Positions 44,516 through 59,949 of a stretch of DNA of 64,000 nt are shown in pieces. Both the position numbers and the translations under genes were made by a program. The stretch comes from an uncultured Gammaproteobacteria bacterium. GTDB lineage: Bacteria > Patescibacteriota > Microgenomatia > UBA10105 > UBA927. How positions within the stretch are numbered: position 1 is the stretch's first letter; each line of letters starts with the position of its first letter. The DNA is taken from the NCBI GenBank assembly GCA_964449585.1, contig CAYUZE010000004.1, positions 51,063 to 115,062 of the forward strand, written 5' to 3'. The notes under the pieces were generated by a model. It searched no databases, was not told the DNA's origin, and worked only from the letters and a program-made list of their open reading frames with translations.

Positions 44516-45472
44516 ATGGCAAAAAAAGCATTGATCACGGGAATCGCGGGTTTTGTAGGAAGCCACATGGCAGAACTTTTGCTCTCCAAAGGCTATGAAG
44601 TCTACGGACTTTGCAGACCGCGAAGCAAAATGGATCATATCGAATCCATAAAGACCAAGCTCCACCTCGAGGATGCCGACCTTCTTGATAGTCACAGCAT
44701 GTACACGACGATCAACAAAATAAAGCCGGATTACATCTTCCATTTGGCCGCGCAGTCATTTGTACCCACCTCATGGGGATCACCTGCGGTGACGCTTGAA
44801 GTCAACATAGTAGGAAGCGCCAATGTGTTCGAGGCGGTTCGTCAGGTCGGTATCGACCCCGTTATCCAAATCGCCTGTTCTTCCGAAGAATACGGGTTGG
44901 TGCATGCCGATGAGGTGCCGATTAAGGAAACCAATCCGCTCCGGCCGCTTTCGCCGTACGCGGTAAGTAAGCTTGCAATGGATTACCTGGGATACCAATA
45001 TTTTGAATCCTATAAGATGCGGATCATCCGAACCCGCGGATTCAATCATACCGGACCGCGCCGGGGTGACACGTTTGCAGAATCAACGTTTGCCAAACAG
45101 ATCGCACTTATCGAAAAGGGCAAGCAGGAACCCGTGATTTATGTCGGCAATCTTGAGGCTGAGCGTGACTATACCGACGTTCGCGATATGGTGCGCGCTT
45201 ACCTCCTGGCCGTCGAGAAATGCGATGCCGGTGACGTCTATAACATCGCAACGGGAAATGCGATCAAGATCGCCGACGTGTTAAAGCTCATGCTCTCCAT
45301 GAGTAAGGTACAGGTGGAAATTAAGGAAGATCCGAAGCGCATGCGTCCTTCAGACGTACCGATTCTTATCGGAGATAATTCAAAATTTGTTGAAAAGACC
45401 GGGTGGAAACCGGAGATTCCCTTCACCAAGACCGCTGAGGATCTTCTCAACTATTGGAGAGAAAGAGTCTAA
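44516..45472 (+). CDS. NAD-dependent sugar-nucleotide 4,6-dehydratase/epimerase (GMD-like)
   Basis: GIAGFVGSH, CSSEEYG, YAVSK and the GFNHTGPRRG motif typical of the GDP-mannose 4,6-dehydratase subfamily. Confidence 0.7.
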   Translation: MAKKALITGIAGFVGSHMAELLLSKGYEVYGLCRPRSKMDHIESIKTKLHLEDADLLDSHSMYTTINKIKPDYIFHLAAQSFVPTSWGSPAVTLEVNIVGSANVFEAVRQVGIDPVIQIACSSEEYGLVHADEVPIKETNPLRPLSPYAVSKLAMDYLGYQYFESYKMRIIRTRGFNHTGPRRGDTFAESTFAKQIALIEKGKQEPVIYVGNLEAERDYTDVRDMVRAYLLAVEKCDAGDVYNIATGNAIKIADVLKLMLSMSKVQVEIKEDPKRMRPSDVPILIGDNSKFVEKTGWKPEIPFTKTAEDLLNYWRERV

Positions 45473-45498: not shown

Positions 45499-46611
45499 AT
45501 GAAAGCGGTTATTATTCTGCCAACGTATAACGAGCGGGAAAATATCACCAGCATGTTAACGAAGCTGGTGGATGTGATGGAGAAAGTAAAGCGCTTTTCG
45601 TATGCGATCCTGGTCGTCGATGACACTTCCCCCGACGGTACCGCCGAACTTGTTCGGGCCTTTGCCAAAACCCACCGTGAAGTTCATCTTTTGACCGGAA
45701 AGAAAGAAGGACTCGGAAAAGCGTTGCTTCGCGGGATGAGTTATGCGATCGACACGCTGCATGCCGAAGTCATTGCCCAGCTTGATGCCGATTTGTCGCA
45801 TGATCCGGAAGCCCTCCCCGAATTTTTCAAAAAAATTGCGGCGGGAGATGATTTTGTCGTAGGCACCCGATATATTCCCGGCGGTTCCATACCTGAGAAT
45901 TGGGGACTCCACCGAAAAATTTTTAGCGTGGTGGGAAATGCCATTGTCCGTTTCGGACTCGGATTCCCGTACGTCCATGACTGGACCGGAGGGTACCGGG
46001 TATTTCGTAAAGAATACTTCGAACGGGCAAAGGATAAAATGGCAAAATACAGCGGGTATGTGTATCAGATCGCGTTTCTTCATAGTGCCATCGTGGATGG
46101 GGCAAAAGTTGGTGAAGTGCCGATCCATTTTACGGACCGGAGATACGGGCGGTCAAAAATTGCGCCCCTTCAATATATACGGAATGTATTTTTGTACGTC
46201 GGACGCGCCCGCTTTCATCAGTTGCGTCACGGTCCGTTTGCCAAGTTTGCGGTAGTGGGAACGGTGGGATTTGTCATTAACACGACGATCCTCGAGCTGG
46301 CGGTGCGAGGAGGGTTTCATCCGGCTGTGGGAAGCGCAATAGGAGCGGAGTGTGCGATTATTTCGAACTTTTTCTTCAATAACGGCTGGACGTTTCGCGG
46401 GAAGAAAATCAGCGGGTTAAGGCTTATTCCTAAATTTCTGCAGTTTAATGCGACGTCATTGGGCGCGCTCCTTATCCAGTCGGGTACCGTCGCGTTGGGA
46501 ACGCATTTCTTCGGTGAAAATCTCTACCGTCTGTTCTATCTCATGGGGGTGGGCATCGGACTTGTCTGGAATTACACCATGTACTCACGGGTAATTTGGA
46601 AGAATAAATAA
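45499..46611 (+). CDS. Polyprenyl-phosphate glycosyltransferase (GT2, Dpm1/GtrB-like) fused to a C-terminal GtrA-like 4-TM domain
   Basis: ILPTYNE, VDD.S.DGT and DAD motifs in the GT2 domain. The C-terminus FAKFAVVGTVGFVINTTIL...NFFFNNGWTF is GtrA-family. Confidence 0.8.
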   Translation: MKAVIILPTYNERENITSMLTKLVDVMEKVKRFSYAILVVDDTSPDGTAELVRAFAKTHREVHLLTGKKEGLGKALLRGMSYAIDTLHAEVIAQLDADLSHDPEALPEFFKKIAAGDDFVVGTRYIPGGSIPENWGLHRKIFSVVGNAIVRFGLGFPYVHDWTGGYRVFRKEYFERAKDKMAKYSGYVYQIAFLHSAIVDGAKVGEVPIHFTDRRYGRSKIAPLQYIRNVFLYVGRARFHQLRHGPFAKFAVVGTVGFVINTTILELAVRGGFHPAVGSAIGAECAIISNFFFNNGWTFRGKKISGLRLIPKFLQFNATSLGALLIQSGTVALGTHFFGENLYRLFYLMGVGIGLVWNYTMYSRVIWKNK

Positions 46612-46613
46612 CG

Positions 46614-48182
46614 ATGACAACCTTTATGCGTAGGGTAGCCCGATATCTCCCGACAATTATTCTCGTTGGTGTTTTACTTCTCGGCGCGTATCTTCGCCTT
46701 TACAAAATTTCCGAATACATGACGTTCCTCGGGGATGAGGGGCGGGATATGCTGGTGATAAAACGGATGATCGTTGATCACAAATTTACGCTCCTGGGGC
46801 CTACGGCATCGGTGGGAGGATTCTTTTTGGGACCCATCTACTATTACTTCATGTTGCCGTTTGTATGGATAAGCGGATTAAATCCCGCGGGAGCGGCGGT
46901 GATGGTTGCCCTGTTCGGCGTTGCCACCATTTATGCACTCTATCGGCTGGGGAAGGATGCGGTACATGAGTGGGTAGGTCTTTGTGCCGCCGCGCTCTAT
47001 AGCGTTTCACCGCTTGTTATCGCGTACTCACGATCATCATGGAATCCGAATCTTGTCCCGTTTTTTTCGGTAGTGCTCTTGTATGCGCTTTGGCGATCCG
47101 TCATCAAAAACGAATCGAAATGGCTGTTTTGGGTGGGGGTAACGTTAGGCATCGGATTGCAACTGCACTATCTTTTTCTCTTTTTGTTTCCCGTGGTTGG
47201 CGCCTGGTATCTGCTTTTGGGAAGAAAAAAAGAGTGGCTGCTTGCGTACGGGAAGGGGATAGCGGGGTTTGTCGTTGGCTACGGACCGTTTCTTGCTTTT
47301 GAACTGCGTCACGGATTCCCCAATACGATTTCGATTTATAATTTTCTCCGTGAAGGCGAAGGCACGGGATTCATTGCCGCAAATTTTTGGAATACGCTCG
47401 TTGATGTCATCTACCGATTGTTCGGAAGGCTTGTGTTTCGCTTGCCGCCGCCCGAACAATGGGTGAATCTTACCCCGACGGTGCAGACGGTATGGTCGGG
47501 AGCGGTGATAGCCTCCATCATTCTTTCCCTCTGTCTTCTTGTCGGGGTGGGATTGGGGTTATTCGAGAGAAAAAAGAAAACATTGTCTCAAGATCGCCGG
47601 ACGGCGTTGCTGTTTTCCTTGTGGTTAGGAATTCCGCTTATTCTTTTCGGGTTTTATAAAAAGGGCATTTATGATTATTATTTCGGAGTATTTTTTGCCG
47701 TACCGTTTTTGCTTGTCTCGTGGGTGTTATTTTCCATCAAAAAAATACCGATCGTACGATTCATCGTTCCCGTTATCGCGGCAATCCTTCTTATTTTGAA
47801 CTGGGAAGGACGGCCGTTTAAGTTTGCTCCCAACAATCAGCTTGCCCAGGCGCGGGAGATTGCCCGGGTTGCGTACGAGAAAACCGAAGGAAAACCCTAC
47901 AATTTTGCCCTGATAACAAACTCGAATTCCGACCATGCATATCGTTATTTCTTTGAAATATGGGGAAACCCTCCCGTTGCCATCCAAAACGAAACAATCG
48001 ATCCTGAACGGAAGAGTGTTACGGATCAGCTCATCATCATCTGTGAGCTTTCCGAGTGTAAACCCCTGGGTCATCCGTTATGGGAAATCGCCGGTTTCGG
48101 ACGTGCGGAAATAGCGGGTGAGTGGCAGGCATCTTTTGTCCGGGTCATGAAATTAGTACACTATACGGAAGGAGCGAAATGA
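46614..48182 (+). CDS. GT-C membrane glycosyltransferase, ArnT/PMT (GT39/GT83)-like
   Basis: Polytopic, with an early extracytoplasmic loop carrying the FLGDEGRDM DE motif; about 12 TM helices. Confidence 0.7.
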   Translation: MTTFMRRVARYLPTIILVGVLLLGAYLRLYKISEYMTFLGDEGRDMLVIKRMIVDHKFTLLGPTASVGGFFLGPIYYYFMLPFVWISGLNPAGAAVMVALFGVATIYALYRLGKDAVHEWVGLCAAALYSVSPLVIAYSRSSWNPNLVPFFSVVLLYALWRSVIKNESKWLFWVGVTLGIGLQLHYLFLFLFPVVGAWYLLLGRKKEWLLAYGKGIAGFVVGYGPFLAFELRHGFPNTISIYNFLREGEGTGFIAANFWNTLVDVIYRLFGRLVFRLPPPEQWVNLTPTVQTVWSGAVIASIILSLCLLVGVGLGLFERKKKTLSQDRRTALLFSLWLGIPLILFGFYKKGIYDYYFGVFFAVPFLLVSWVLFSIKKIPIVRFIVPVIAAILLILNWEGRPFKFAPNNQLAQAREIARVAYEKTEGKPYNFALITNSNSDHAYRYFFEIWGNPPVAIQNETIDPERKSVTDQLIIICELSECKPLGHPLWEIAGFGRAEIAGEWQASFVRVMKLVHYTEGAK

Positions 48183-48931
48183 CAAGCCCGTTTCTTTCGG
48201 TCGTTATTCCCTCGTATAACGAGGAAACCAATATCCGTTTAGGCAGTCTTGATAAGGTCTCACGGTACCTGGAAAAACAACCCTATACCTGGGAAGCTAT
48301 TCTTGTGGATGACGGATCTACGGATAAGTCGCCACTCCTTATGGATGCCTTTGCCAAGGCGAATCCGGGATTTACCGTGTTGCACAACCCGCATCGGGGG
48401 AAAGCGGAAACAGTCGTTGCGGGCGTAATGCATGCCAAAGGATCGATCGTGCTTTTTTCCGATCTTGACCAGGCCACCCCTATTGCCGAGCTCGAAAAAG
48501 TGCTTCCGTGGTTCGATAAGGGCTACGACGTCGTCATCGGGAGCCGTAACCGAAGACGGGAAGGGGCGCCGCTCTCGCGGGTTATCATGGCACGGGGATT
48601 TATGGTGCTACGGGGGATCATACTGGGACTCAAAGGAATAACTGATACCCAATGCGGCTTTAAGGCGTTTAAACGTCATGTCGCCAAAGATATTTTTTCT
48701 CGGTTACAGTTGTACGGAAAAAATCAGGAAGTGCAGGGTCCCATGGTGACGGCGGGATTTGATATCGAAGCGTTATTCCTCGCCAAAAAGCTCGGTTTCA
48801 AAATTAAGGAAGTTCCCGTGGAATGGCACTACGTCGAAACAAGACGGGTAAATCCGGTCAAAGATTCCCTGCAGGGATTTTTTGACATGATTAAGATCCG
48901 AAGGAACGCCTGGCAGGGCAAATACGCATGA
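48179..48931 (+). CDS. GT2 glycosyltransferase (polyprenyl-phosphate sugar transferase-like)
   Basis: LSVVIPSYNE, LVDDGSTD and SDLD motifs; ATGA overlap with the upstream gene. Confidence 0.8.
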   Translation: MTSPFLSVVIPSYNEETNIRLGSLDKVSRYLEKQPYTWEAILVDDGSTDKSPLLMDAFAKANPGFTVLHNPHRGKAETVVAGVMHAKGSIVLFSDLDQATPIAELEKVLPWFDKGYDVVIGSRNRRREGAPLSRVIMARGFMVLRGIILGLKGITDTQCGFKAFKRHVAKDIFSRLQLYGKNQEVQGPMVTAGFDIEALFLAKKLGFKIKEVPVEWHYVETRRVNPVKDSLQGFFDMIKIRRNAWQGKYA

Positions 48932-50070
48932 AACGCGTCCGGTTTCTTGTATCGCTTTTTTATCTTGCGTGTATCGCGTTATTTTTGTTTTCCTATACGC
49001 AGGTTGATTTGAATCTTACGCTGTCCCGGACCGGCGTTGTCCAGCATATCCAAAAATCGTTTCAATACATAGGATATTATCAGCGGCCGCTTGCTACCGC
49101 GATATACGGAAGTATCCTTTCGCTTTTTTTTGTTTTATACGGATACCTTTCATGGCTTGCGTACAAAAAGCAACTCACGCTCTCCGTGATTCGACGGCTT
49201 ATCGCGGGGGCGACATTGCTGCTTTTGTTCTCCTATCCCGCCGCATTTTCCTACGATTTTTTCAATTATCTCTTTACGGCAAAAACCGTTCTGGTTTATC
49301 ACCATAATCCTTACACCGTGATTCCGTTGCAGTTTGCCGGCATCGATCCATGGACGAATTTTATGCGATGGACGCACTTATCGAGCGCCTACACGCCGCT
49401 GTGGATAGCAATGAGTATGGTTCCGTATATCTTGGGGCTCGGGTATTTTATTCCGGTACTTTTCGCCACTAAATTTTTTATCGCCGCCTGTTATCTTGCG
49501 TCCTGTTATGCGATTGTCCGTATTGCGGAGGCTATAGATCCTGACAAAAAGCCGTTTATCCTGACCGTGTTTGCCTTAAATCCGTTACTCATCGTCGAAA
49601 CGCTGGTGAGCGGACACAATGACATCGTGCTTGTCCTGTTTGCTCTTTTTTCAATTCTTATGTACATAAAAAAGCGGTATGATGCAGCATGGCTTTTGCT
49701 CGGTTTGTCCGTGGCGACGAAATTGATGACGATATTTCTTGTTCCCGTATATCTGTTACGGAAGAACCGATGGTATCTGTTTGTTTTCATGGCTGCGGGA
49801 CTTATCCTGGTGCTGCTCAAACGGGAATTTTTGCCGTGGTACTGGGTATGGATGCTCCCGGTTGTTGCGTTAAACTATGAGCGCGTACGGCTCCTCCGCT
49901 TTTCTTTTGTCGTTTCCGCGGCGCTCCTCTTAAGTTATGCACCGTATCTTTACTATGGCGAATATTCAGCACTATCCCAGGCGTGGAAAACGGGAATCAT
50001 CTGGACAGGAGTGGCGCTGGGTGCCGTGACCGCAATCTTTTTCCCGAAACCGACCGCTACGAACGGATAA
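48928..50070 (+). CDS. Integral membrane protein, DUF2029/GT87-like putative glycosyltransferase
   Basis: Polytopic; the NPLLIVETLVSGHNDIVLV block resembles GT87/DUF2029 mannosyltransferase-like proteins. Confidence 0.5.
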   Translation: MKRVRFLVSLFYLACIALFLFSYTQVDLNLTLSRTGVVQHIQKSFQYIGYYQRPLATAIYGSILSLFFVLYGYLSWLAYKKQLTLSVIRRLIAGATLLLLFSYPAAFSYDFFNYLFTAKTVLVYHHNPYTVIPLQFAGIDPWTNFMRWTHLSSAYTPLWIAMSMVPYILGLGYFIPVLFATKFFIAACYLASCYAIVRIAEAIDPDKKPFILTVFALNPLLIVETLVSGHNDIVLVLFALFSILMYIKKRYDAAWLLLGLSVATKLMTIFLVPVYLLRKNRWYLFVFMAAGLILVLLKREFLPWYWVWMLPVVALNYERVRLLRFSFVVSAALLLSYAPYLYYGEYSALSQAWKTGIIWTGVALGAVTAIFFPKPTATNG

Positions 50071-50371
50071 AAATACCGGTAACAATCGCGCCCTGGACAA
50101 TAAGCAGCATACAGATCACCGCAATGATCGGTTTTGCCCGGTGGAGTATCCCGTAGATCAGCCAGCAACAAGAGACGGGTAGGAATCCGCACCGGGAAGT
50201 ACGGGAGACGCCCAAAAGATTCGATGCCGTCCCTACGCTGACCAGCTGAGGAACGTTGACAAGGACGGTGATACCTCCCATGAGGGAGGCGAATCGGTCA
50301 AGCGTACGGACGATTTTTGCGGATGATTTCTTGCGCCGTTTTTCCACCGCGTGATAAAAGCCACCCTGCAT
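50057..50371 (-). CDS. Possible small membrane protein (104 aa) on the opposite strand, in the only large gap of the glycan locus
   Basis: ORF with two hydrophobic segments. It fills an otherwise 370-nt intergenic gap and could be spurious. Confidence 0.3.
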   Translation of the reverse strand: MQGGFYHAVEKRRKKSSAKIVRTLDRFASLMGGITVLVNVPQLVSVGTASNLLGVSRTSRCGFLPVSCCWLIYGILHRAKPIIAVICMLLIVQGAIVTGIFIRS

Positions 50372-50439
50372 AAGGTCAGTGGAGCAGAGAAGGAATACGG
50401 TATTTCCTGGTTTTCACGGTTTTAGGATATAATGAATCC

Positions 50440-51972
50440 ATGCGGGGGAACAAAACGAAGCTATGGTTCGGTATCGGCGCCTTGGTTCTTGTGGCGCTCT
50501 ATTTTTTCACCCGGCTTTTTCACCTCACGGGGCTTCCCATATTTACCGATGAGGCGATTTACATCCGCTGGTCCCAAATAGGCATGCGGGATGCCAATTG
50601 GCGCTTTATATCGCTCACCGACGGGAAGCAACCCATGTTCACCTGGATCATGATGGTGCTGTTAAAGATTTTTGAGACTGCCGATCCCCTGTGGGCGGGG
50701 AGGCTCACCTCGGTAATTGCGGGATTCGGCACGCTGATCGGTGTCTGGTTTGTGGCATATGAATTGTTTCGCGATCGCCGGGTTTCGTGGGCGGCAAGTG
50801 TAGGCTATATTCTTTTGCCGTTCAGCACCTGGTACGACCGGGTCGCACTGTATGATTCGTTGGTTGCGACATTTGCCGTCTGGAGTTTGTACCTGGGGAT
50901 CCGTTTGGTGCGTAAGTTGCGGCTTGATACCGCACTGTTACTCGGTATGGTGCTGGGTACCGGGATGCTTAATAAAAGTTCCGGATTTTTGTCGCTCTAC
51001 TTTCTGCCCGCAACCCTTCTTTTATTTGATTGGCAACACAAGGAAAAGCGGCAAAAACTTTTACGGTGGATCGCGCTGGTTGCCGTAGCGGGTGTCCTTT
51101 CCCAGGTGATCTACAGCGTGTTACGGCTTTCACCGTTTTTTCACATGGTGGAGCAAAAAGATAACGTGTTTATTTTTTCCGTCAGCGAATGGTTGAATCA
51201 ACCGTTCCGATTCCTTGCGGGTAACCTTCGGGGGATGTTTGACTGGGTACGGCATTATCTCACCTTACCGGTATTTATCGCGGTCTTATTGCCGATCTTT
51301 ACAAGGTGGCCGAAAAACAGGGAGCGATGGTTCCTGTATGTCTGGTGGGCGCTTCCGTTTGCGGCACTTGCGACATTTGCAAAAATACTGTACCCGCGTT
51401 TTATCTTTTTTATGATGATGCCGCTGCTTATCGTTGCGGCTTCAACGGCGGTTACGGTATGGGACGCGATGAAAAATCGGATGGCACGCCTGCTCCTTGT
51501 TTTCGTGCTCGTCGTTCCTTCACTCTTTATGGATTGGTTTATTATTACCAATCCCGTTGCCGCCCCCATACCCGAATCCGAACGCGGGCAATTTTTGGAT
51601 GATTGGCCGGCAGGGTACGGAGTAAAGGAAGTGGTTACCTATCTTACCGCCGAGGCGGCGCATCAAAAAATACAGGTATTTACGGAAGGAACATTCGGAC
51701 TGCTTCCGTACGCGATCGAAATTTATCTTGTCGATAATCCGAACGTACGTATCACCGGTATGTGGCCGCTTCCAGAAACCATGCCTGATGCTATCGTTAC
51801 CGCGGCAAGCGAAAGCGCCACCTACTTTGTCTTGAACGAAACACAGACAAAACCGGATTGGCCGATGACGCTTATCGGCGAGTATCGAAAAGGGATGAGA
51901 GAAGACAAGCGGATGATGCGGTTCTATAGAGTGGATGCTCCGGTTGCCGATTTCGGTGCCGCAAAAAAGTAA
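50440..51972 (+). CDS. GT-C membrane glycosyltransferase, ArnT/PMT (GT39)-like
   Basis: FTDEAIY DE motif in the first loop; about 11 TM helices; GGATATAAT -10 upstream. Confidence 0.7.
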   Translation: MRGNKTKLWFGIGALVLVALYFFTRLFHLTGLPIFTDEAIYIRWSQIGMRDANWRFISLTDGKQPMFTWIMMVLLKIFETADPLWAGRLTSVIAGFGTLIGVWFVAYELFRDRRVSWAASVGYILLPFSTWYDRVALYDSLVATFAVWSLYLGIRLVRKLRLDTALLLGMVLGTGMLNKSSGFLSLYFLPATLLLFDWQHKEKRQKLLRWIALVAVAGVLSQVIYSVLRLSPFFHMVEQKDNVFIFSVSEWLNQPFRFLAGNLRGMFDWVRHYLTLPVFIAVLLPIFTRWPKNRERWFLYVWWALPFAALATFAKILYPRFIFFMMMPLLIVAASTAVTVWDAMKNRMARLLLVFVLVVPSLFMDWFIITNPVAAPIPESERGQFLDDWPAGYGVKEVVTYLTAEAAHQKIQVFTEGTFGLLPYAIEIYLVDNPNVRITGMWPLPETMPDAIVTAASESATYFVLNETQTKPDWPMTLIGEYRKGMREDKRMMRFYRVDAPVADFGAAKK

Positions 51973-51990
51973 CGGTAGGGCGGTACGGGT

Positions 51991-53583
51991 ATGAGAAAGA
52001 AAAAACCATCAATGCAAAAAAACTCCGGCCACTCACTTGCCCCGAACCGTGATAGGGAGAGTCCTTCGGGATTTTTCTCCCGTTGGTCGTTGCTCCTTAT
52101 TGCGGCGGCACTTTTTCTTGTTCTGACACCCCTGATGCGATCGGGATTTTTTATTACGGACGACGGTGAGTGGATGATAATCCGGCTGTCGGCATTCTAT
52201 CAAAGTCTCGCCGACGGACAATTCCCGGTGCGATTTTTGGGAAGATTGAACAACAGTTACGGCTATCCGGTGAGTAACTTTCTGTATCCGGGGTTTCTCT
52301 ACTTGGGATCCCTGCTGCATATTCTCGGCGCGTCATTTCAGGATGCGGTAAAAATCATCCTTGCCGGTTCCGTTGTCTCGGCCGTTATTGCCGTCTACGC
52401 GGGACTTCGGAAAAGATACGGAAGATGGGCACGGACCATGGGGGCAGTAAGTCTTGTCTTTGCTCCGTATCTCCTTTTTGATATGTATCATCGTGGGTCG
52501 GTGGGAGAAGTACTGGCGATCGCCGCCGCATCCTGGGCCGTCACCGCCATTGTCAGAGGGTGGGGGTGGTTGTTTGCCCCCATGATAGGGCTTCTTATCA
52601 TAAGCCATAATTCGGCGGCGCTCCTTTTGGGGATTGCAATCGCCACCCTTGCGATGAGCGTTCCGGCAAGAGGCATGTTTTTGACCGCCGGCGCAATCGG
52701 CGTGGGGTTTGCCAGTTTTTTCTGGATTCCCGCCCTTCTGGAGAAACATTTGGTTCGGTTTGATGCCGTCGTCATTTCGGATCCGTCATCGTACTTTATT
52801 ACGCCGCTGAATGCCGGACTTATCGGGTTGGGCACCGTGGTTGCGCTTGCGGTATTTCTGGGCTTACGGAAAAAAATTACCCGGTTTGAATCGGTTGCAT
52901 TTTTTTGGGCGATAGCGGGAATCATACTTGCGCTTCCGATTACTGCTCCCGTATGGAACATATCCGCATTTTCCGTCCTTTTTCAGTTTCCGTACCGCGC
53001 GTTGTTATTGCCCGTACTGTTCGGGCCGTGGATTATCGCCGCGGTTTTTGAACATCTTTCGGGTTGGCGGCGGGTCGCCTTATCCGCGGTACTTTTTTCA
53101 GTTTGGTTATCAACGGCATCCGTTCTATTGGGTGAGGTTTCTCCCGTACGGCGTGACACGGGCTATTACGTGACAAACGAAGCGACGACTACCGTCGCAA
53201 ACGAGTATATGCCCCGATGGGTGCATGATATCCCCGTGAATCGTCCCGTGGAAACCTTGGAAGTGATAAACGGCGACGCTCTCCTTTCAACGCGCACGTT
53301 TTCCGGCGAAAAAATCACCTTTACCGCGGAAGCAAAAGAGTCAAGCACGATTCAGATCAATAAAATTTATTATCCCGGATGGGGGATTACCGTTGACAAC
53401 CGATTGACGCCTATTGATTATGCGAACCGATTGGGAGTCATGCGTATCGAAATTCCCAAAGGAACCCATGTCGTATCCGCCGATTTTCGTGAGACACCGT
53501 TTCGATTGGCCGCGGATTTGATAAGTATCCTGTCGTTTATCTGTTATTGCATTGTGTTGCGGCGCCTAACGCACTCATCATGA
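51991..53583 (+). CDS. Large polytopic membrane protein, paralog 1 (putative GT-C-like; possibly PTPS-related/DUF family)
   Basis: Conserved block FFITDDGEWMIIRLSAFYQSLADGQFPVRFLGRLNNSYGYPVSNFLYP is shared with the next gene; about 12 TM helices plus a C-terminal extracytoplasmic domain. Confidence 0.55.
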   Translation: MRKKKPSMQKNSGHSLAPNRDRESPSGFFSRWSLLLIAAALFLVLTPLMRSGFFITDDGEWMIIRLSAFYQSLADGQFPVRFLGRLNNSYGYPVSNFLYPGFLYLGSLLHILGASFQDAVKIILAGSVVSAVIAVYAGLRKRYGRWARTMGAVSLVFAPYLLFDMYHRGSVGEVLAIAAASWAVTAIVRGWGWLFAPMIGLLIISHNSAALLLGIAIATLAMSVPARGMFLTAGAIGVGFASFFWIPALLEKHLVRFDAVVISDPSSYFITPLNAGLIGLGTVVALAVFLGLRKKITRFESVAFFWAIAGIILALPITAPVWNISAFSVLFQFPYRALLLPVLFGPWIIAAVFEHLSGWRRVALSAVLFSVWLSTASVLLGEVSPVRRDTGYYVTNEATTTVANEYMPRWVHDIPVNRPVETLEVINGDALLSTRTFSGEKITFTAEAKESSTIQINKIYYPGWGITVDNRLTPIDYANRLGVMRIEIPKGTHVVSADFRETPFRLAADLISILSFICYCIVLRRLTHSS

Positions 53584-55229
53584 AACGAGTCCTACCGTAT
53601 ATTTTGCTTGCGCTTGCGGGTTTTTTTGCCGTCCGGCCGCTCGTATCTCCGGGGTTCTTCCCGATGCACGATGATACGCAGGTTGCCCGTGTCATCGAAA
53701 TGGGAAGGGCGCTTCGTGATTTCCAGTTTCCCGTCCGATGGGTCAATGAGTTAGGGTACGGATACGGTTATCCGATTTTTAATTTTTACGGACCGTTACC
53801 GTATTATTTCGGCGGGTTGCTGTATGCCGTGGGTGTCCCCGCCGTTTTGGCAACCAAAATCATGTTTGCCGCAGGGATCCTACTGCCCGCATTGTTGGTA
53901 ACGCTGCTTATCGAACTGCCGTACGGACTTCTTGCCGGCGTACTCTTTCTTTTTGCGCCCTATCATGCGGTACAGATATACGTTCGGGGGGCGGTGGGTG
54001 AATATTGGTCCCTCGTGTTTTTCCCCCTTATTGCCTACTGGATTACGGGATGGGGAAAACCCGCAACAAAGAAGTCGGCGGCGGCGGGAGCGATCGGTAT
54101 CGGAGGAGTGATCCTCTCCCATACTCTGATGGGATTTGCGGTGACGATCTTCGTCGGGTGTTCCTTTGTCCTGTATCGGATGATTCGATATCTTCGTAAT
54201 CGCGACCGGCTTCGCGAAACGCTTTCCGCATCCTTTCCGCTGCTTCTCGGTATGGGGCTTGCGGGTTTTTTCTGGCTCCCTGCAATGTTTGAAATGCAGT
54301 TTACCGGGGTTTCCGGCCAGGTGAGTGCCAGTGCCGATTATAAGGATCACTTCGTATGTATCACCCAACTGTACGCATCACTCTGGGGATTCGGCGGATC
54401 CGCGAAAGGATGTGTTGACGGCATGTCGTTTATGGTCGGGAAAGCCCATCTGCTTCTCGGTTTTGCCGGACTGGTGACGGCGCTTGTATTGCGGCCGAAA
54501 CGAATGGCCGGACTTATAGGAGTTGCGGTCGCCGCGGCATTTGTAGGAGTATTGTTTGCTACCGAAGCTTCAAAATGGTTGTGGGATAGCATCCCCGGCT
54601 TTGCCTACCTTCAATATCCCTGGCGTTTTCTGGGGATTCTTATGTTCGGCACGTCACTCTTGGGAAGTTTTGCGATGCTCCCGGTAAAAAACGCCGTTGC
54701 CAAATGGGCGGCAACCATAGCCATTTGCGTCGGGGTTATACTGTTAAACGGCAAATGGTTTATGCCCCAATATACCTATGAGAAACCAAGTACCGCATTT
54801 GAAGCCCCTTCCGATGTCAGGTGGCGGGTGTCAAAAATTTCCGATGAATACCTTCCGCGTTCCGTCCCCCGGCCGGACACACCGAAAGAAGCTGATTTTG
54901 CTACAATAGAGGAAGGAAACGGCCTGTCGGCGCGGTTGCTGACAAAAACCACGACCCGGGAAGTATGGTCCGTCATTGCGGCGGAAGAGATGCCCGTTCG
55001 TATCAATAAAGCGCCGTTTCCCGGTTGGCGGTATTTTATTAACGATAAAGAAGTACGGCCGACCGTCAAAAACGGATTGCCCGAGCTTACTCTTGCCGCG
55101 GGTCAGTCGTATATAACCATGCGTTTTACCGATACGCCGATACGGGTTATCGGCAACGGTATTTCGCTTGTTAGCCTTATTATTTTTATTTATTATCTTT
55201 ATGCCAAGCAGCACAAAACCAAGCGTTAA
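53580..55229 (+). CDS. Large polytopic membrane protein, paralog 2 of 51991-53583
   Basis: FFPMHDDTQVARVIEMGRALRDFQFPVRWVNELGYGYGYPIFNFYGP aligns with paralog 1; ATGA overlap with it. Confidence 0.55.
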   Translation: MKRVLPYILLALAGFFAVRPLVSPGFFPMHDDTQVARVIEMGRALRDFQFPVRWVNELGYGYGYPIFNFYGPLPYYFGGLLYAVGVPAVLATKIMFAAGILLPALLVTLLIELPYGLLAGVLFLFAPYHAVQIYVRGAVGEYWSLVFFPLIAYWITGWGKPATKKSAAAGAIGIGGVILSHTLMGFAVTIFVGCSFVLYRMIRYLRNRDRLRETLSASFPLLLGMGLAGFFWLPAMFEMQFTGVSGQVSASADYKDHFVCITQLYASLWGFGGSAKGCVDGMSFMVGKAHLLLGFAGLVTALVLRPKRMAGLIGVAVAAAFVGVLFATEASKWLWDSIPGFAYLQYPWRFLGILMFGTSLLGSFAMLPVKNAVAKWAATIAICVGVILLNGKWFMPQYTYEKPSTAFEAPSDVRWRVSKISDEYLPRSVPRPDTPKEADFATIEEGNGLSARLLTKTTTREVWSVIAAEEMPVRINKAPFPGWRYFINDKEVRPTVKNGLPELTLAAGQSYITMRFTDTPIRVIGNGISLVSLIIFIYYLYAKQHKTKR

Positions 55230-55950
55230 TATCGTGCTTCCCGTGTATAACGAAGCGGTGGAATTGAAAACAAGTGTCGGCACCCTCATCCGGTACCTGG
55301 CAAAAAATCTCTCCGATTTTTCCTGGCATATAACGATCGCCGATAACGCAAGCACCGATGCCACTTTGAAAATCGCGCGTGAACTCAGTCGTACGTATCA
55401 ATCCGTGTCGGTAGAACATCTTTCGCAAAAAGGACGGGGAAGGGCGGTGAAGCACGTCTGGCGCAAAGGCGACTATGATTATCTTGCCTACATGGATATA
55501 GATCTTTCGACCGATCTGAAGCACCTGCCGCCGCTCTTGCATGCGCTCGAGCGGGGTTTTGACATGGCAATAGGGAGCAGAAATACGAAGGGAGCGAGAG
55601 TATTCGGGAGAAGCACGCTGCGGTCAATCACTTCCAAAGGATATATCAGCCTTATCAAGCTTTTTTTCTGGGTGAATTTCACCGATGCGCAATGCGGATT
55701 TAAGGCGGTCTCCCGAAGGGTCGTACGCGAGCTCATGCCGCAGGTGAAAGATAACGAATGGTTTTTTGACAGTGAACTCCTGATCGTCGGTGAGAAGAGC
55801 GGGTATCGGATTTACGAAGAACCGGTGACGTGGATCGATAATCCCGGGTCTACGGTGCGTGTCATGAAAACGGCGCTTGGGGACTTGAAAGGATTGTGGC
55901 GGTTATATACCACGCGGCCGTGGAGAAAGCTACCGTATGCCAGACATTGA
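55201..55950 (+). CDS. GT2 glycosyltransferase
   Basis: IVLPVYNE, IADNASTD and MDIDLSTD motifs. Confidence 0.8.
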   Translation: MPSSTKPSVNIVLPVYNEAVELKTSVGTLIRYLAKNLSDFSWHITIADNASTDATLKIARELSRTYQSVSVEHLSQKGRGRAVKHVWRKGDYDYLAYMDIDLSTDLKHLPPLLHALERGFDMAIGSRNTKGARVFGRSTLRSITSKGYISLIKLFFWVNFTDAQCGFKAVSRRVVRELMPQVKDNEWFFDSELLIVGEKSGYRIYEEPVTWIDNPGSTVRVMKTALGDLKGLWRLYTTRPWRKLPYARH

Positions 55951-57388
55951 TTTGGATGTTATAAAGAAACGTTCGGTGGTCGGCGTCGTTGCCCTTACCG
56001 CGCGGACGTTCGTTCTTCAGGTGGTCGCATTTGGTGCGACATTTTTATTGACATTATTTTTAACCCCCGATATCTTCGGTGTTTTTTATGTTGTTTCCGC
56101 GATCATTTCCTTCTTGGGATATTTTTCCGATATCGGCTTAGCCGCGGCACTGGTGCAAAAGAAAGACGAGGTGACCGACGAAGATTTAAATACGACATTC
56201 ATGATCCAACAGGGGTTAGTCGTTACCCTTGTCGTTATTAGTCTTATTTTTTCCCAATTTATCGCGTCGTTTTACCGGCTTGATGCTTCGGGCGTGTGGC
56301 TATTTCGTGCGCTTGCGGTATCGTTTTTTCTTTCGAGCCTTAAGACGATTCCGTCGGTGTTACTGGAGCGAAAATTATCCTTTGACCGCCTGGTGATTCC
56401 GCATATCGTCGAAACGCTGGGTTTTTACGGCGTCGCCGTATTTTTTGCCTGGCGCGGACAGGGGATAACAAGTTTCACCTGGGCGGTATTGGTGCGGGGT
56501 ATTTTGGGACTTATCACCATGTATATCGTCGAACCGTGGTTTCCCCGGTTTGCCGTATCCCGCGTCAGCGCCAAACGCCTTATGAAGTTCGGTATCCCGT
56601 TTCAGATGAATTCATTTTTGGCGCTGTTAAAAGACGATCTTATGACGGTATTTTTGGGGCGGGTGTTACCGTTTGCGGAAGTGGGATATATCGGATGGGC
56701 CAAGAAGTGGGCGGAAGTACCGTTACGGCTTATCATGGATAGCGTCATCCGCGTGACGTTCCCCGCATATTCACGGTTGCAGCACGACAAAAAACTTCTG
56801 GAAAAGGCGATCGATAAAACGATGTTCGGCCTTGCGTCGGCGATTCTACCGCTTTCGACCGGATTGTTGTTTTTTGTGCATCCCATGGTTGGCTTAATTC
56901 CGCGATATGCCAAATGGGAGCCGGCCATCATTTCGTTTTATATTTTCGTCTTTTCGTCGGCAATCGCCGCGCTTTCAACGCCGCTTATGAACGCGTTAAA
57001 TGCCGTAGGCAAAATTCGAACGACCTTATCATTCATGGTGGGGTGGACGATCGGTACCTGGGCGTGCACCCTCCTGTTTATGCAATTTTTCGGGTTTAAC
57101 GGCGTGGCGCTCGCCCTTCTTTTCGTATCATTGTCAATTGTACTTGTGATAAAAACGGCGAAACGAATTGCCGATTTTTCGTTTATCGACAACGTAAAGG
57201 GGCCGATTGTGGCGACCGTTGTGCAGGGGTGCGCCTATTGGCTCCTCCTGGCCGTAACACCCCACACGTATATAAGCCTTGTGGTTCTGGGAATTATCGG
57301 TATGGGGGTGTATGCCGGTGCACTGTTTGTTCTGGAAAAAAATAACATATATGCATTTATCGGTATGATAAGGAGGAGTACCCAATGA
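55937..57388 (+). CDS. Wzx-like oligosaccharide flippase (MOP/polysaccharide biosynthesis protein family)
   Basis: 14-TM pattern and an N-terminal block typical of PF01943/PF13440 flippases. Confidence 0.75.
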   Translation: MPDIDLDVIKKRSVVGVVALTARTFVLQVVAFGATFLLTLFLTPDIFGVFYVVSAIISFLGYFSDIGLAAALVQKKDEVTDEDLNTTFMIQQGLVVTLVVISLIFSQFIASFYRLDASGVWLFRALAVSFFLSSLKTIPSVLLERKLSFDRLVIPHIVETLGFYGVAVFFAWRGQGITSFTWAVLVRGILGLITMYIVEPWFPRFAVSRVSAKRLMKFGIPFQMNSFLALLKDDLMTVFLGRVLPFAEVGYIGWAKKWAEVPLRLIMDSVIRVTFPAYSRLQHDKKLLEKAIDKTMFGLASAILPLSTGLLFFVHPMVGLIPRYAKWEPAIISFYIFVFSSAIAALSTPLMNALNAVGKIRTTLSFMVGWTIGTWACTLLFMQFFGFNGVALALLFVSLSIVLVIKTAKRIADFSFIDNVKGPIVATVVQGCAYWLLLAVTPHTYISLVVLGIIGMGVYAGALFVLEKNNIYAFIGMIRRSTQ

Positions 57389-58284
57389 AACTATCCGTCG
57401 TCATCAGCACGTATAATCGTGCAAAGAGTCTGGTACGCACGATCGCTTCCGTCAAAAATTTTGCCGATGAGATTATCGTTGTGGATAACGAATCCTCCGA
57501 TGATACCGCGCAAGTCGCCAAAAAACTCGGGACAAAAATATTTTCACGACCCAATAATCTGATGCTTAACGTGAATAAAAATTTCGGTTTTTCCAAAGCG
57601 GAGGGCGATTGGATTCTTTGCCTCGATGACGATGAAGAGGTAACTCCGGAGCTGTCGGCGGAAATACAGTCGGCAATCCGAACGGATGCTATCGATGGCT
57701 TTTGGATACCGAGAAAAAACATGATTTTCGGGAAATGGATACGACACGGCATATGGTGGCCCGATCTTCAGCTTCGACTTTTCAAAAAAGGTGCCGGAAA
57801 ATATCCTGAAAAACACGTCCATGAATACATAAGCATCGCGGGAAAGTCAGGTACGCTCAAGAGCCCCTATACCCATTATAACTATGACAGTGTCGGCCAA
57901 TACCTCGAAAAAATGCAGAGGGTGTACACGGAAAACGAGGTGAAGAAATACCGTGCGTTGGGATATACGGTGACATGGCAGGATGCCATCCGTTTTCCCG
58001 CCTCGGATTTTATGAAACTCTATTTTGCCCAGGGAGGTTACAAGGACGGTTTGCACGGTTTGGTGCTTGCCATGCTCCAGGCGTTTTACTCCTTTCTTAT
58101 TTTCCTTAAGCTGTGGGAGAAGGAACGGTTTGTCGAAATGGATATACCCCCGGAAACGTCAATTGCCGAATTGAGAAAGACGGGAAAGGAATTATCCTAT
58201 TGGATGACGACCGTACGCATCGGGGAATCCCATACGTTGCTCAGGAAATGGTGGTATAAACTCGTACGAAGATTGAGCCGGTAA
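57385..58284 (+). CDS. GT2 glycosyltransferase
   Basis: LSVVISTYNR, VVDNES.DDT and LDDDEE motifs. Confidence 0.8.
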   Translation: MKLSVVISTYNRAKSLVRTIASVKNFADEIIVVDNESSDDTAQVAKKLGTKIFSRPNNLMLNVNKNFGFSKAEGDWILCLDDDEEVTPELSAEIQSAIRTDAIDGFWIPRKNMIFGKWIRHGIWWPDLQLRLFKKGAGKYPEKHVHEYISIAGKSGTLKSPYTHYNYDSVGQYLEKMQRVYTENEVKKYRALGYTVTWQDAIRFPASDFMKLYFAQGGYKDGLHGLVLAMLQAFYSFLIFLKLWEKERFVEMDIPPETSIAELRKTGKELSYWMTTVRIGESHTLLRKWWYKLVRRLSR

Positions 58285-58286
58285 CC

Positions 58287-59207
58287 ATGAAAAAAGTCGC
58301 CATCGTTATCGTGAACTGGAACGGTTATAAAGACACATCGGTGTGTCTTCGGTCGCTTGCCAAGCTCCGGCGTACCAACGTCGAAGTAGAAACAATTGTC
58401 GTGGATAACGGTTCGACCGATGAATCGGCTGCGATAATCGCCAGGGATTTTCCCGGGGCGGTGCTTTTAAAACTCGACGAGAATCGGGGTTTTACCGGCG
58501 GCAATAACATAGGTATTACGTATGCGATGAAACGGGGAGCGGATTTTGTATGGCTGCTTAATAATGATACGATCGTCGATCCCGAAGCACTTTCGCTTCT
58601 TGACGCTTTTGATACCGATACCGTGGGAATTGCCGGATCAAAAATTTATTTTGCGCCGGGACACGAATATCATAAAACCCGCTACGCCAAAAACGAACGC
58701 GGGCGGGTATTTTGGTACGCAGGCGGACTGGTTGATTGGGATAACCTTTATGCTTCGCATCGCGGCGTTGATGAGGTGGATCATGGGCAATACGATCGTG
58801 CAATAGAAACGCCGTTTGTGACCGGTTGTTCCATGATGATCGCAAGAGCAGTCGTGGAATCCGTGGGGCTTTTGGATGATGCCTATTATCTGTATCTGGA
58901 GGATCTTGATTATTGTCTCCGCGCAAAGCGCGCGGGATTCACGCTTGTCTACCAGCCGACATCGGTTATCTGGCACGTCAACGCCGGCTCGTCGGGTGGT
59001 GCGGGGAATCCCCTCCATGATTATTACATCACTCGTAACCGGTTGCTTCTCGGCATGCGGTATGCCTCAATCCGAACCAAAATTGCCCTGCTTCGTGAAG
59101 GCGTCGCGTTTCTTCACGAGAACAACGAGGAAAAACGAAAAGCGGTTGCTGACTTTTTCTTTCTCAGACGGGGGAAACAATATGAACCGAAAAAAGCAAA
59201 AACTTAG
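58287..59207 (+). CDS. GT2 glycosyltransferase (rhamnosyltransferase-like)
   Basis: VAIVIVNWNG, VVDNGSTDES and LLNNDT motifs. Confidence 0.8.
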   Translation: MKKVAIVIVNWNGYKDTSVCLRSLAKLRRTNVEVETIVVDNGSTDESAAIIARDFPGAVLLKLDENRGFTGGNNIGITYAMKRGADFVWLLNNDTIVDPEALSLLDAFDTDTVGIAGSKIYFAPGHEYHKTRYAKNERGRVFWYAGGLVDWDNLYASHRGVDEVDHGQYDRAIETPFVTGCSMMIARAVVESVGLLDDAYYLYLEDLDYCLRAKRAGFTLVYQPTSVIWHVNAGSSGGAGNPLHDYYITRNRLLLGMRYASIRTKIALLREGVAFLHENNEEKRKAVADFFFLRRGKQYEPKKAKT

Positions 59208-59949
59208 CATTGTTATCATTGCCAGAAACGAAGCGCCGCGTATCGCCGCATGTATCGGTGCGCTTGAAGATGTCGGCGAAATTATCGTTGTCGATAACGG
59301 CTCCCAGGATGATACGACTCGTGTTGCCAAACAGGCGGGAGCGCAAGTTATCCCGGTTACGCAGGAAGGGTTTGCAACCCTCCGCAATCATGCCATGCGA
59401 TATGTGACGGGCGAGTGGGTGTTGTATGTCGATGCCGACGAGATTGTAACCCCGACGCTTCGGAAAGCCATAGCGGATGGCATTGCTCCCCACGCCAAAA
59501 ATGCGGTAGCAGGGTACGAACTCTATCGAAAAAACTACTACCTCGGTCATCCGTGGCCGGGAGGGGAATGGATGCTCCGGCTTTTCCGTGTTGCGGCGTT
59601 TCGCGGTTGGGAGGGCGAACTGCACGAAACGGCACGGGTAGAGGGGGAAGTAAAACGCTTGGAAGGAGAACTGCTGCATGATACGCACCGGACGCTTGAA
59701 GAAATGGTCGATAAAACAAACGAGTGGAGCGAAACGGAGGCAATGTTGCGACTTGTCGCCCATCATCCGCCGATGACCTGGTGGAGAATGCTTCGGGTAA
59801 CGCTCACCGGTTTTTTGCATTCGTACATAACCCTCGGCGGATGGCGTGCCGGTACGGTGGGCTGGATCGAAAGCATATACCAGGGGTTTAGCTTATTTAT
59901 TACGTACGCGAAACTATGGGAGTTGCAGCAAAAAAAGTCACATGAATAA
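59182..59949 (+). CDS. GT2 glycosyltransferase
   Basis: LSIVIIARNE, VVDNGSQDDT and YVDADE motifs; start at the ATG at 59182. Confidence 0.75.
   Translation: MNRKKQKLSIVIIARNEAPRIAACIGALEDVGEIIVVDNGSQDDTTRVAKQAGAQVIPVTQEGFATLRNHAMRYVTGEWVLYVDADEIVTPTLRKAIADGIAPHAKNAVAGYELYRKNYYLGHPWPGGEWMLRLFRVAAFRGWEGELHETARVEGEVKRLEGELLHDTHRTLEEMVDKTNEWSETEAMLRLVAHHPPMTWWRMLRVTLTGFLHSYITLGGWRAGTVGWIESIYQGFSLFITYAKLWELQQKKSHE

Follow-up and report, generated by a model that had tools for sequence, protein, structure and literature searches.

Introduction

The multi-component glycosylation systems of monoderm bacteria follow a common scheme. A glycosyltransferase (GT) of family 2 (GT2, with a GT-A fold) makes a C55-P-sugar. 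A GtrA- or Wzx-type protein flips it, and a GT-C enzyme of the PMT_2 or YfhO type transfers the sugar outside the cell (PMC8035078, PMC5836110). These PMT_2 and YfhO enzymes mostly decorate lipoteichoic acid (LTA), wall teichoic acid (WTA) or wall polysaccharides (PMC8035078, PMC5836110). Here, we analyze a locus with these components in a stretch of 64,000 nucleotides, called the window throughout (contig CAYUZE010000004.1 of assembly GCA_964449585.1, positions 51,063 to 115,062 of the forward strand). The host is a bacterium of the Patescibacteria, or candidate phyla radiation (CPR), in the Microgenomates group. We are highly confident that the locus encodes a glycan assembly system that works outside the cytoplasm with polyprenyl-P-sugars and GT-C enzymes.

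All three component types are shared with the monoderm systems CsbB/GtcA/YfhO, GtlA/GtcA/GtlB, GacI/J/K/L and CsdAB/CD/EF (PMC8035078, PMC5836110). Those systems have one synthase and one GT-C, usually encoded at scattered sites, and they decorate a polymer made elsewhere. In contrast, three synthases and about ten GT-Cs lie here in one array. The array also contains cytoplasmic GTs and sugar-nucleotide genes, unlike the monoderm systems. Besides, GtrA is present only as a domain (PF04138) fused to a synthase, and the locus has no free-standing GtrA.

The Corynebacterineae make lipomannan (LM), lipoarabinomannan (LAM) and arabinogalactan with Ppm1, PimE, MptA/B/C/D, EmbA-C and AftA-D (PMC2440535, PMC3485146, PMC3123699). 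In these pathways, as proposed for our locus, a polyprenyl-P-sugar synthase feeds many GT-Cs, which polymerize and branch a glycan on the outside after a cytoplasmic priming phase of GT-B and GT-A enzymes. Our locus has an MptA/B-like enzyme and a GT4 as well, and among the known bacterial systems only that of the Corynebacterineae approaches it in the number of GT-Cs. Nevertheless, our host belongs to an unrelated phylum, has a genome of about 1 Mb and lacks the mycolate outer membrane. None of the locus GT-Cs belongs by sequence to the Emb/Aft families (GT53, GT85 and GT89). The mycobacterial genes are dispersed and not in one operon, and enzymes of the PF10131 and YfhO types are outside the mycobacterial set.

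Systems directed to proteins are also similar in part. They include PgfS/PgfM1/PgfE/PgfM2 of Streptococcus mutans, streptococcal GtrB/PgtC2 (PMC5856776; 10.1101/2024.05.05.592596) and actinobacterial Ppm1/Pmt. The shared elements are a GtrB/PgfS-like synthase, PMT_2/YfhO-like GT-Cs, a short-chain dehydrogenase/reductase (SDR) and Ser/Thr/Pro-rich linkers encoded nearby. However, our locus has far more enzymes, and all Pgf models score far below their cut-offs (for example PgfS, 72 bits against 500). The tuaABCDEFGH operon of Bacillus subtilis makes a wall polymer with glucuronic acid (GlcA) by a Wzx/Wzy-type route, and it shares with our locus a supply of UDP-GlcA, a Wzx, GT2s and a GT4. The best NCBIfam match of the dehydrogenase is to TuaD (537 bits), with weaker matches to TuaB (the Wzx) and TuaG (the GT2s), all below the equivalog cut-offs. 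Equivalents of TuaA (the primer), TuaE (the polymerase) and TuaF are missing here. Conversely, the tua operon has no GT-Cs.

The component types are all known. The locus differs from the described systems in its scale, its organization in one co-directional array that is conserved in the related Microgenomates loci examined, the absence of polymerase and ligase genes from the locus versions examined, and the use of GT-Cs of the PF10131 and PTPSa types. The literature searched describes neither a locus of this kind in CPR bacteria nor any glycan pathway for Microgenomates. The composition of the CPR envelope is an acknowledged open question (10.1101/2020.05.14.094862).

Results and discussion

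Organization of the locus

The original prediction, made without database searches, had described a lipid-linked glycan system with several polyprenyl-P-sugar synthases and a dense set of extracytoplasmic GT-Cs at 45499-57388. Family scans, solved relatives, motifs and synteny agree with it, and every feature that it listed is present at its coordinates on the + strand. The membrane-phase genes in the window are the following.

45499-46611, +: polyprenyl-phosphate sugar synthase 1, a GT2 domain (PF00535, 1e-25) with a GtrA/DPMS-type domain of four transmembrane (TM) segments (PF04138 GtrA_DPMS_TM, 2e-19)
46614-48182, +: GT-C of PMT_2 type, PMT_2a (PF13231, 4.4e-13), with about 9 TM segments and a C-terminal domain of 126 aa
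48179-48931, +: synthase 2 (GT2b), soluble GT2 of DPM1/Ppm1 type (PF00535, 3.7e-26), with ATGA overlaps on both sides
48928-50070, +: GT87/MptA_B-like GT-C (PF09594, 3.9e-6, 27.2 bits against a cut-off of 25)
50440-51972, +: GT-C of PMT_2 type, PMT_2b (PF13231, 2.5e-11), with an invariant D37-E38 in loop 1
52012-53583 (alternative start 51991), +: GT-C PTPSa, in no Pfam or NCBIfam family, with a GT-C core, a C-terminal beta-sandwich and a final TM helix
53580-55229, +: GT-C PTPSb (PF10131 PTPS_related, 28.4 bits against a cut-off of 26.4), with a conserved H41-D42
55201-55950, +: synthase 3 (GT2c), soluble GT2 (PF00535, 6.5e-21), with an uncertain start (ATG at 55201 or GTG at 55234)
55937-57388, +: Wzx/MOP-family flippase (PF13440, 1.2e-50; PF01943, 2.5e-21), with about 11 TM segments
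59942-62248, +: GT-C YfhO-1, 768 aa (YfhO PF09586, 7e-30, above the gathering score)
63301-64000, +, running off the window: N-terminal part of GT-C YfhO-2, which has 746 aa in a contig of the same population

The first nine genes are closely packed in the middle of a longer array. The predicted boundaries were too narrow, and the system is about 2.7 times larger. The co-directional + strand array extends from 40497 to beyond 64000 and covers at least 31.8 kb. This is about 3% of a 990,597-bp contig with identical proteins, in a genome of about 1 Mb. Past the window, the array continues in two contigs of the same population with YfhO-2, a GT2, a methyltransferase, a GT-C-like protein of 579 aa and two convergent PMT/PMT_2 genes. 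One of these contigs (L081) has 13 mismatches with window positions 56735-64000, in 7266 nt. We counted about ten GT-C-type genes in 25.6 kb of window and continuation.

The packing is consistent with the operon organization claimed before. On one strand, start-codon analysis gives 4-nt ATGA overlaps at 48179, 48928, 53580 and 57385. Two more are found outside this interval, at 42259 and 62245, for a total of six, together with an 8-nt overlap at 59942. The synthase and GT-C genes are interleaved and translationally coupled (GT2-DPMS/PMT_2a, GT2b/GT87, PTPSb/GT2c). This arrangement suggests donor-transferase modules. A gap of 369 nt (50071-50439) interrupts the + strand run. It has a TATAAT-like box directly 5' of the gene at 50440, and an internal promoter is likely there.

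Donor synthases and flippase

Synthase 1 aligns with the Dol-P-Man synthase 5MLZ over residues 1-351 (E 6.9e-39), an archaeal DPMS architecture. Because 5MLZ aligns through both the catalytic and the membrane domains, the "GtrA" region is a membrane domain of DPMS type. The fusion of a Dpm1-like GT2 with GtrA was correctly recognized. A flippase role of the fused domain is not implied, since the archaeal Dol-P-Man synthase has the same membrane domain.

The second GT2 had also been called Dpm1-like, and the third simply a GT2. The nearest solved relatives of both are polyprenyl-phosphate glycosyltransferases (ArnC, DPMS and GtrB). For synthase 2, these are ArnC (4e-14), then DPMS and GtrB. For synthase 3, the sole solved relative is DPMS 5MLZ (1.8e-16). 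Neither protein has a TM segment, and in this they resemble eukaryotic DPM1 and the catalytic domain of mycobacterial Ppm1. The DxD motifs are 100% conserved among orthologs: D96xD98 in synthase 1, D114xD116 in synthase 2 and D110xD112 in synthase 3. The best NCBIfam matches of the three GT2s are ArnC, PgfS, AglJ, Dol-P-hexose transferase and PpgS. All are below the cut-off, with 58-65 bits against 529 for the ArnC model. From these similarities, the three GT2s are predicted to form polyprenyl-P-sugars. Their pairwise identity is only 26-28%, which suggests three separate donor specificities; three different donors are likely for this reason.

The flippase call holds without change (see the list above). 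Wzx-type proteins can also flip polyprenyl-P-monosaccharides, as is thought for GacK (PMC8035078).

GT-C enzymes

Pfam scans place the proteins of the interval in GT or GT-C families or in the flippase family. PTPSa has no family, and it is a GT-C by its paralogy and fold. In each of the six GT-C families tested, 95% or more of the orthologs keep the acidic residues of loop 1. The conserved positions are D41/D45 in PMT_2a, D37-E38 in PMT_2b, DD in PTPSa, H41-D42 in PTPSb, "MPD" in YfhO-1 and D110 in the GT87-like enzyme. More precisely, D41, R44 and D45 of PMT_2a are invariant, and its orthologs conserve a D41-E42 motif. The D110 of the GT87-like enzyme is invariant too. From YfhO-2 onward, the loop-1 motifs are "ITDPIRQQIPW", "YPDEFDS" and "SHDETA"; the second belongs to the polytopic protein of 579 aa. 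Beyond the window, a convergent gene (L081, 12377-14029) matches PF02366 (PMT) at 9e-8.

The two PMT_2 proteins had been called ArnT/PMT-like enzymes of family GT39. They are GT-Cs of PMT_2 type, but the GT39 part of the claim is unsupported. Both match PMT_2 (PF13231) only, and neither has the PF02366 signature. Their ortholog profiles find nothing in the PDB at E<=1, and no solved PMT or ArnT. The GT87-like assignment stands on its PF09594 match and on orthologs that match PF26314 (MptA_B_family). The enzyme also matches TIGR03459 (alpha-1,6-mannosyltransferase A) at 2e-9, with 36.8 bits against a cut-off of 439. Its ortholog profile finds no solved PimE. For PTPSb, PMT_2a, PMT_2b and the GT87-like enzyme, there is no PDB match by sequence or by ortholog profile. 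As these searches gave no match, solved enzymes could not serve to place the GT-Cs in GT39, GT83 or GT87, and we dropped this placement.

The original prediction had also described two large polytopic paralogs. Indeed, PTPSa and PTPSb are paralogs over their full length (26% identity, E 4e-31). PF10131, the family of PTPSb, is listed in Pfam's GT-C clan with unknown function (PMC7801869), and 8,736 representatives are found at E<=1e-3. PTPSa has 911 detectable homologs, nearly all without a Pfam domain. Its own Pfam scan gives only a sub-threshold match to the C-terminus of YfhO. In an alignment of 83 sequences, the Asp-Asp just past TM1 is invariant, as are Arg, Glu and His-Asn positions. The AlphaFold2 model of PTPSa shows a GT-C fold (predicted local distance difference test (pLDDT) 89.6, predicted template-modelling score (pTM) 0.91). 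The structural neighbours of its beta-sandwich are accessory domains of glycoside hydrolases and lyases (ranks 21-40).

The YfhO-1 model (pLDDT 89.7) has a GT-C fold as well. Its top matches are AftD (19.2), STT3B (18.2), PglB (17.0) and AftA (16.7), and it also matches the C-terminal domain of AglB. The C-terminus of the YfhO-1 sequence matches PgfM2, below the cut-off. For both YfhO-1 and PTPSa, AftD and AftA rank among the closest structures. A profile comparison also relates PTPSa to YfhO (hhalign 97%, E 1e-10), and PTPSa, PTPSb and YfhO-1 each end in a beta-sandwich.

Natural fusions are found elsewhere. PTPSa-PTPSb-like tandems form single proteins of 1116 aa (P0241) and 1093 aa (P0254), and a GT2 domain (GT2b-like in P0361) is joined to a PTPSb-like GT-C in P0361 and P0368 (821 and 826 aa). 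As far as the sequences go, the fusions suggest functional or physical coupling, though they may be gene-calling artefacts.

Conservation across Microgenomates

We compared the locus with 80 loci that encode relatives of the PF10131 protein, from GTDB species-representative genomes. Their titles include Gottesman-, Woese-, Levy-, Collier-, Shapiro-, Roizman- and Daviesbacteria. The shared order on one strand, which is kept in the first six of these groups, starts from UDP-glucose 6-dehydrogenase (UGDH) and is UGDH-SDR-GT2/DPMS-PMT_2-GT2-GT87-PMT_2-PTPSa-PTPSb-GT2-Wzx-GT2-GT2-GT2-YfhO-GT4-YfhO. The matched open reading frames (ORFs) lie on the same strand in 99.5% of cases. Adjacency is kept for PTPSa->PTPSb in 58/60, for Wzx->GT2d in 61/63 and for GT87->PMT2b in 38/41. 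Wzx is present in all loci of at least 19 kb (43/43). Over about 10 kb on each side of the anchor gene, the loci have a median of 6 GT-C-like ORFs.

The near relatives (54-63% identity) hold the whole array, with the rml genes, an opposite-strand SemiSWEET gene and the downstream methyltransferase/GT-C block. In distant relatives, the variable content consists mostly of added GT-Cs. Among 101 extra ORFs, 34 are PMT_2, 11 PMT, 2 GT87 and 2 DUF2079, and unassigned ORFs of about 380 aa bear a "GIGDDGLY...PPLGKYL" motif typical of the GT-C clan. Gottesmanbacteria-type loci (L021, L030, L038, L039 and L050) have two extra SDRs and a second GT2-GtrA/DPMS synthase between GT2c and Wzx. This added donor module suggests lineage-specific sugar variation.

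Some distant clusters, in part titled Collierbacteria, contain large ORFs of 940-1130 aa: L075 15628-18852, L076 4623-7703, L077 13108-16170, L079 13060-16452 and L080 16245-19067. They match none of the Pfam families found among the extra ORFs. In the two translations examined (L075 and L079), the N-terminus looks like a signal peptide, and there are about 10 TM segments.

Many third-party records of metagenome-assembled genomes with the locus are titled "uncultured Gammaproteobacteria", "Pseudomonadales", "Lysobacterales" or "Sulfotelmatobacter". Such titles are presumably wrong, as the locus is of Microgenomates type.

Sugar-nucleotide supply and cytoplasmic glycosyltransferases

The upstream part of the array encodes sugar-nucleotide enzymes.

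40497-41246, +: RmlA-like glucose-1-phosphate nucleotidyltransferase (PF00483, 6.5e-54)
41246-42262, +: RmlB-like NDP-sugar 4,6-dehydratase (PF16363, 1.9e-81; PF01370, 1e-62)
42259-43149, +: RmlD-like 4-ketoreductase (PF04321, 5e-56), with a 4-nt overlap with rmlB
43195-44490, +: UDP-glucose 6-dehydrogenase (UDP-GlcA supply), with all three UDPG_MGDP_dh domains
44516-45472, +: Rmd/GMD-like SDR (GDP-6-deoxyhexose branch), below all NCBIfam equivalog cut-offs

The UDP-glucose 6-dehydrogenase exceeds the cut-off of TIGR03026 (465 bits), and the TuaD model gives 537 bits, where its cut-off is 700. Among solved structures, the SDR is closest to the GDP-6-deoxy-D-lyxo-4-hexulose reductase 2PK3 (1.6e-83) and then to the GDP-heptose 4,6-dehydratase 7US5. 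For this reason, we place it in the GDP-sugar branch and not with the ArnA or UXS types.

A UDP-glucose dehydrogenase, an SDR and ArnC-like and ArnT-like proteins together could be read as an ArnT/Arn pathway. We rejected this candidate. ArnA, ArnB and ArnD are absent, the SDR is in the Rmd/GMD branch and the host is presumably a monoderm, like the groundwater CPR cells that have been observed. The locus has no aminotransferase, formyltransferase or deformylase, and CPR cells lack an outer membrane (10.1101/2020.05.14.094862).

Downstream of Wzx, the array encodes cytoplasmic GTs.

57385-58284, +: GT2 (d) (PF00535, 1.3e-27), 30% identical to GT2 (f)
58287-59207, +: GT2 (e), rhamnosyltransferase/GlfT1-like (PF13641, 5e-19; TIGR01556 rhamnosyltransferase at 1.8e-15, below the cut-off)
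59182-59949, +: GT2 (f) (PF00535, 2e-19), a gene of 255 aa in L081
62245-63297, +: GT4 with a GT-B fold (PF00534, 1.4e-19)

The gap in the + strand run holds a gene that the original prediction overlooked.

50057-50371, -: SemiSWEET-like sugar transporter with 3 TM segments, 104 aa (PQ-loop and WLIYG motifs in the translation; PF03083 only at E 0.038)

A tblastn search against 82 loci was empty, and we considered the ORF as a genome-specific insertion. This was rejected because near relatives carry it: L087 has a precomputed PF03083 match at this position, and L083-L085 have weak PF03083 or PQ-loop matches. The more distant Microgenomates loci lack the ORF, and there its two neighbours directly adjoin each other. 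It may import sugar for the pathway.

Proposed pathway and product

In the mechanism that we propose, the upstream genes would supply a dTDP-6-deoxyhexose (RmlA/B/D), UDP-GlcA (UDP-glucose dehydrogenase) and a GDP-6-deoxyhexose (Rmd-like SDR). On the cytoplasmic face, the GT4, four GT2s and the methyltransferase would build a lipid-linked oligosaccharide on a carrier primed by an enzyme encoded elsewhere. Wzx would move this intermediate, the monosaccharide donors or both across the membrane. The three Dpm1/GtrB-like GT2s, anciently diverged, would each load polyprenyl phosphate with a different sugar. Outside the membrane, seven GT-Cs of the window (two PMT_2, one MptA/B-like, PTPSa, PTPSb and two YfhO), or about ten of the full locus, would elongate, branch and cap the glycan with lipid-linked sugars. 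The product could then be built like mycobacterial LM/LAM/arabinogalactan or like the decorated wall polysaccharides of Gram-positive bacteria. The gene content, folds, motifs, packing and synteny are observations; the sugar identities, the order of the steps, the Wzx substrate and the acceptor we infer.

On balance, we favour an envelope glycopolymer as the product, either a cell-wall-associated polysaccharide or a lipoglycan, and we rate this as somewhat better than an even guess. Four arguments lead to it. First, the GT87-like enzyme resembles the MptA/MptB family of mannan polymerases. Second, only the mycobacterial machinery for LM, LAM and arabinogalactan has as many GT-Cs. Third, PTPSa, PTPSb and YfhO-1 have beta-sandwich domains, and the neighbours of the PTPSa model are accessory domains of carbohydrate enzymes. 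Fourth, the characterized PMT_2 and YfhO enzymes of monoderms mostly act on LTA, WTA and wall polysaccharides. The window has no teichoic-acid genes.

Several points weigh against this product. The similarity of the beta-sandwich is generic. The sugar assignments are all below the curated equivalog cut-offs of NCBIfam. An RmlC-like motif was not found in the window, and the dTDP-sugar product is uncertain for this reason. Wzx alone does not prove a lipid-PP-oligosaccharide branch, given the monosaccharide flipping of the GacK kind. No chemically characterized envelope polysaccharide of CPR bacteria was found in the literature searched. Two membrane-anchored proteins with Pro/Thr/Ser-rich linkers are encoded just upstream, and protein-directed GT-C systems target this type. 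Finally, the start and the end of the pathway are missing, because no primer, polymerase or ligase was found in the versions of the locus examined. The scanned ORFs of the window, 8 kb beyond it and the 101 extra ORFs contain no priming phosphoglycosyltransferase (PF00953/PF02397), Wzy, Wzz, LCP, WaaL, and no PglL-type or known oligosaccharyltransferase; for Wzy, divergent proteins can escape Pfam. Genes for the priming enzyme and the ligase may lie in other parts of the contig, which has about 0.99 Mb.

Another possibility is that the YfhO-type enzymes, the PTPSa-PTPSb pair or both take the roles of Wzy, ligase or oligosaccharyltransferase. The principal envelope polymer would then be made outside the cell by GT-Cs alone, in a mycobacterial style. 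We consider this unlikely. The lack of Wzy, LCP, WaaL and PglL-type genes in every locus version examined is compatible with it, as are the two YfhO genes embedded among cytoplasmic GT genes and the oligosaccharyltransferases STT3B and PglB, which follow AftD as the best structural matches of YfhO-1. In this scheme, the enzymes would transfer Wzx-flipped lipid-PP-oligosaccharides en bloc.

Alternative explanations

The envelope glycopolymer has to be weighed first against protein O-glycosylation. The PMT_2, YfhO and PTPS GT-Cs would put polyprenyl-P sugars on Ser/Thr-rich linkers of membrane-anchored, surface-layer (S-layer) or pilin proteins, and then extend them. The candidate targets and their neighbour are upstream of the array.

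35931-36779, +: membrane-anchored surface protein, 282 aa, no Pfam match, with 23 Ser/Thr/Pro in 30 linker residues
39271-40236, +: CAP-domain membrane protein (PF00188, 7e-20), with a Pro/Thr-rich linker (14 Ser/Thr/Pro in 30 residues) before the C-terminal TM segments
40233-40481, +: small membrane ORF, 82 aa, with about 3 hydrophobic segments by eye and a 4-nt overlap with the CAP stop codon

By their composition, the two linker proteins are plausible O-glycosylation targets. We treat the CAP protein as context and as a possible target, since its membership of the system is not proven. It is highly conserved (P0391, named CAP domain-containing protein, is 100% identical), and it sits 5' of rmlA in L086 and L087, where the whole region is syntenic. 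The 82-aa ORF has an equivalent there, with a weak DUF5656 match. It calls to mind the small membrane proteins that pair with soluble GT2 synthases, GacJ among them. A search for a co-encoded substrate thus gave these two surface proteins, but no S-layer protein in the window, L081 or the 101 extra ORFs.

The PMT_2 matches also speak for O-glycosylation, as does the DE motif that each of the two PMT_2 proteins has in loop 1. The GT2s match PgfS and AglJ, and the YfhO-1 C-terminus matches PgfM2, all below the cut-off. Rmd (2PK3), the solved structure closest to the SDR, is an enzyme of an S-layer glycan pathway. Streptococcal GT2/GT-C systems modify Ser/Thr-rich disordered regions like these linkers (10.1101/2024.05.05.592596; PMC5856776), and CPR cells from groundwater have both an S-layer and pili (10.1101/2020.05.14.094862). 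However, known protein-directed systems use one to three GT-Cs, against about ten here. The MptA/B-like enzyme, the 4-5 cytoplasmic GTs, the GT4, the methyltransferase and Wzx point to a sizeable glycan. Unrelated genes separate the linker proteins from the locus. Nothing can be concluded from their proximity, as synteny covers all 30 kb of the neighbourhood in the relatives checked (L086 and L087). Moreover, the two PMT_2 enzymes in the interval lack PF02366, and their profiles find no solved PMT. We regard O-glycosylation as rather unlikely, but as a serious competitor of the glycopolymer.

It is quite unlikely, in our judgement, that the array holds several independent transmembrane glycosylation modules, each a GT2 with its own GT-C or GT-Cs and a different acceptor, clustered for co-regulation. 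The interleaved and coupled synthase and GT-C genes would fit such modules, and in B. subtilis, as in Lactococcus lactis, three GT-A/GT-C pairs act separately on different targets (PMC8035078). PMT_2 genes come and go freely among relatives (34/101 extra ORFs), and the likely internal promoter and the opposite-strand gene divide the array at 50071-50439. On the other hand, the order of about 17 genes is kept as a block over deep Microgenomates lineages, which indicates a functional unit. Only three donor synthases serve about ten GT-Cs, and cytoplasmic GTs and Wzx are embedded between the GT-C genes.

Chance clustering, or generic polytopic membrane proteins mis-annotated as GTs, is effectively refuted: single assignments are weak (27 bits for GT87, 28 bits for PF10131, no family for PTPSa, no PDB matches by sequence), yet the acidic residues at catalytic positions are invariant, synteny holds over 80 loci and the models have GT-C folds.

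Other genes of the window

The remaining genes of the window are housekeeping genes: SecA, aminoacyl-tRNA synthetases, RuvABC, FtsEX, release factor 2 (RF2), a MacB-type pump, DsbA-like proteins and signal peptidase. The class II aminoacyl-tRNA synthetase of Asp/Lys/Asn type (9163-11226, +, 687 aa) has an extra C-terminal HD domain. The signal peptidase I (S26) domain lies inside an unusually long protein of 620 aa (26697-28559, +), which has several TM segments at its N-terminus and is much extended at its C-terminus.

The RF2 gene (31640-32646, +, with SPF and GGQ motifs) is broken into two ORFs at GGC TTT TGA AAG (32117-32128). One added T in the T-run would rejoin the frame, and in relatives the gene is unbroken (335-336 aa). 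The split is either an assembly indel or a real -1 frameshift. A programmed prfB frameshift was rejected. The 1-nt discrepancy is in a mid-gene T-run and not at the canonical early prfB +1 site.

Implications

The locus takes about 3% of a genome of about 1 Mb, has about ten GT-Cs and keeps its order across the related Microgenomates loci examined, which implies a major and complex surface glycoconjugate. Such a molecule probably matters for how these episymbionts attach to hosts, resist phages or keep their envelope intact. With three donor synthases and conserved catalytic residues, the locus offers a concrete experimental handle, and it could be a genomic marker for comparing CPR envelopes. 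It also exposes a gap in family coverage. PTPSa, with its 911 homologs, has no Pfam or NCBIfam family, and its PF10131 paralog has about 8,700 cluster representatives with no assigned function. If GT-Cs alone do build the polymer, the PF09586 and PF10131 GT-Cs would form a new functional class, and the product would be a lineage-defining envelope polymer of a major CPR class.

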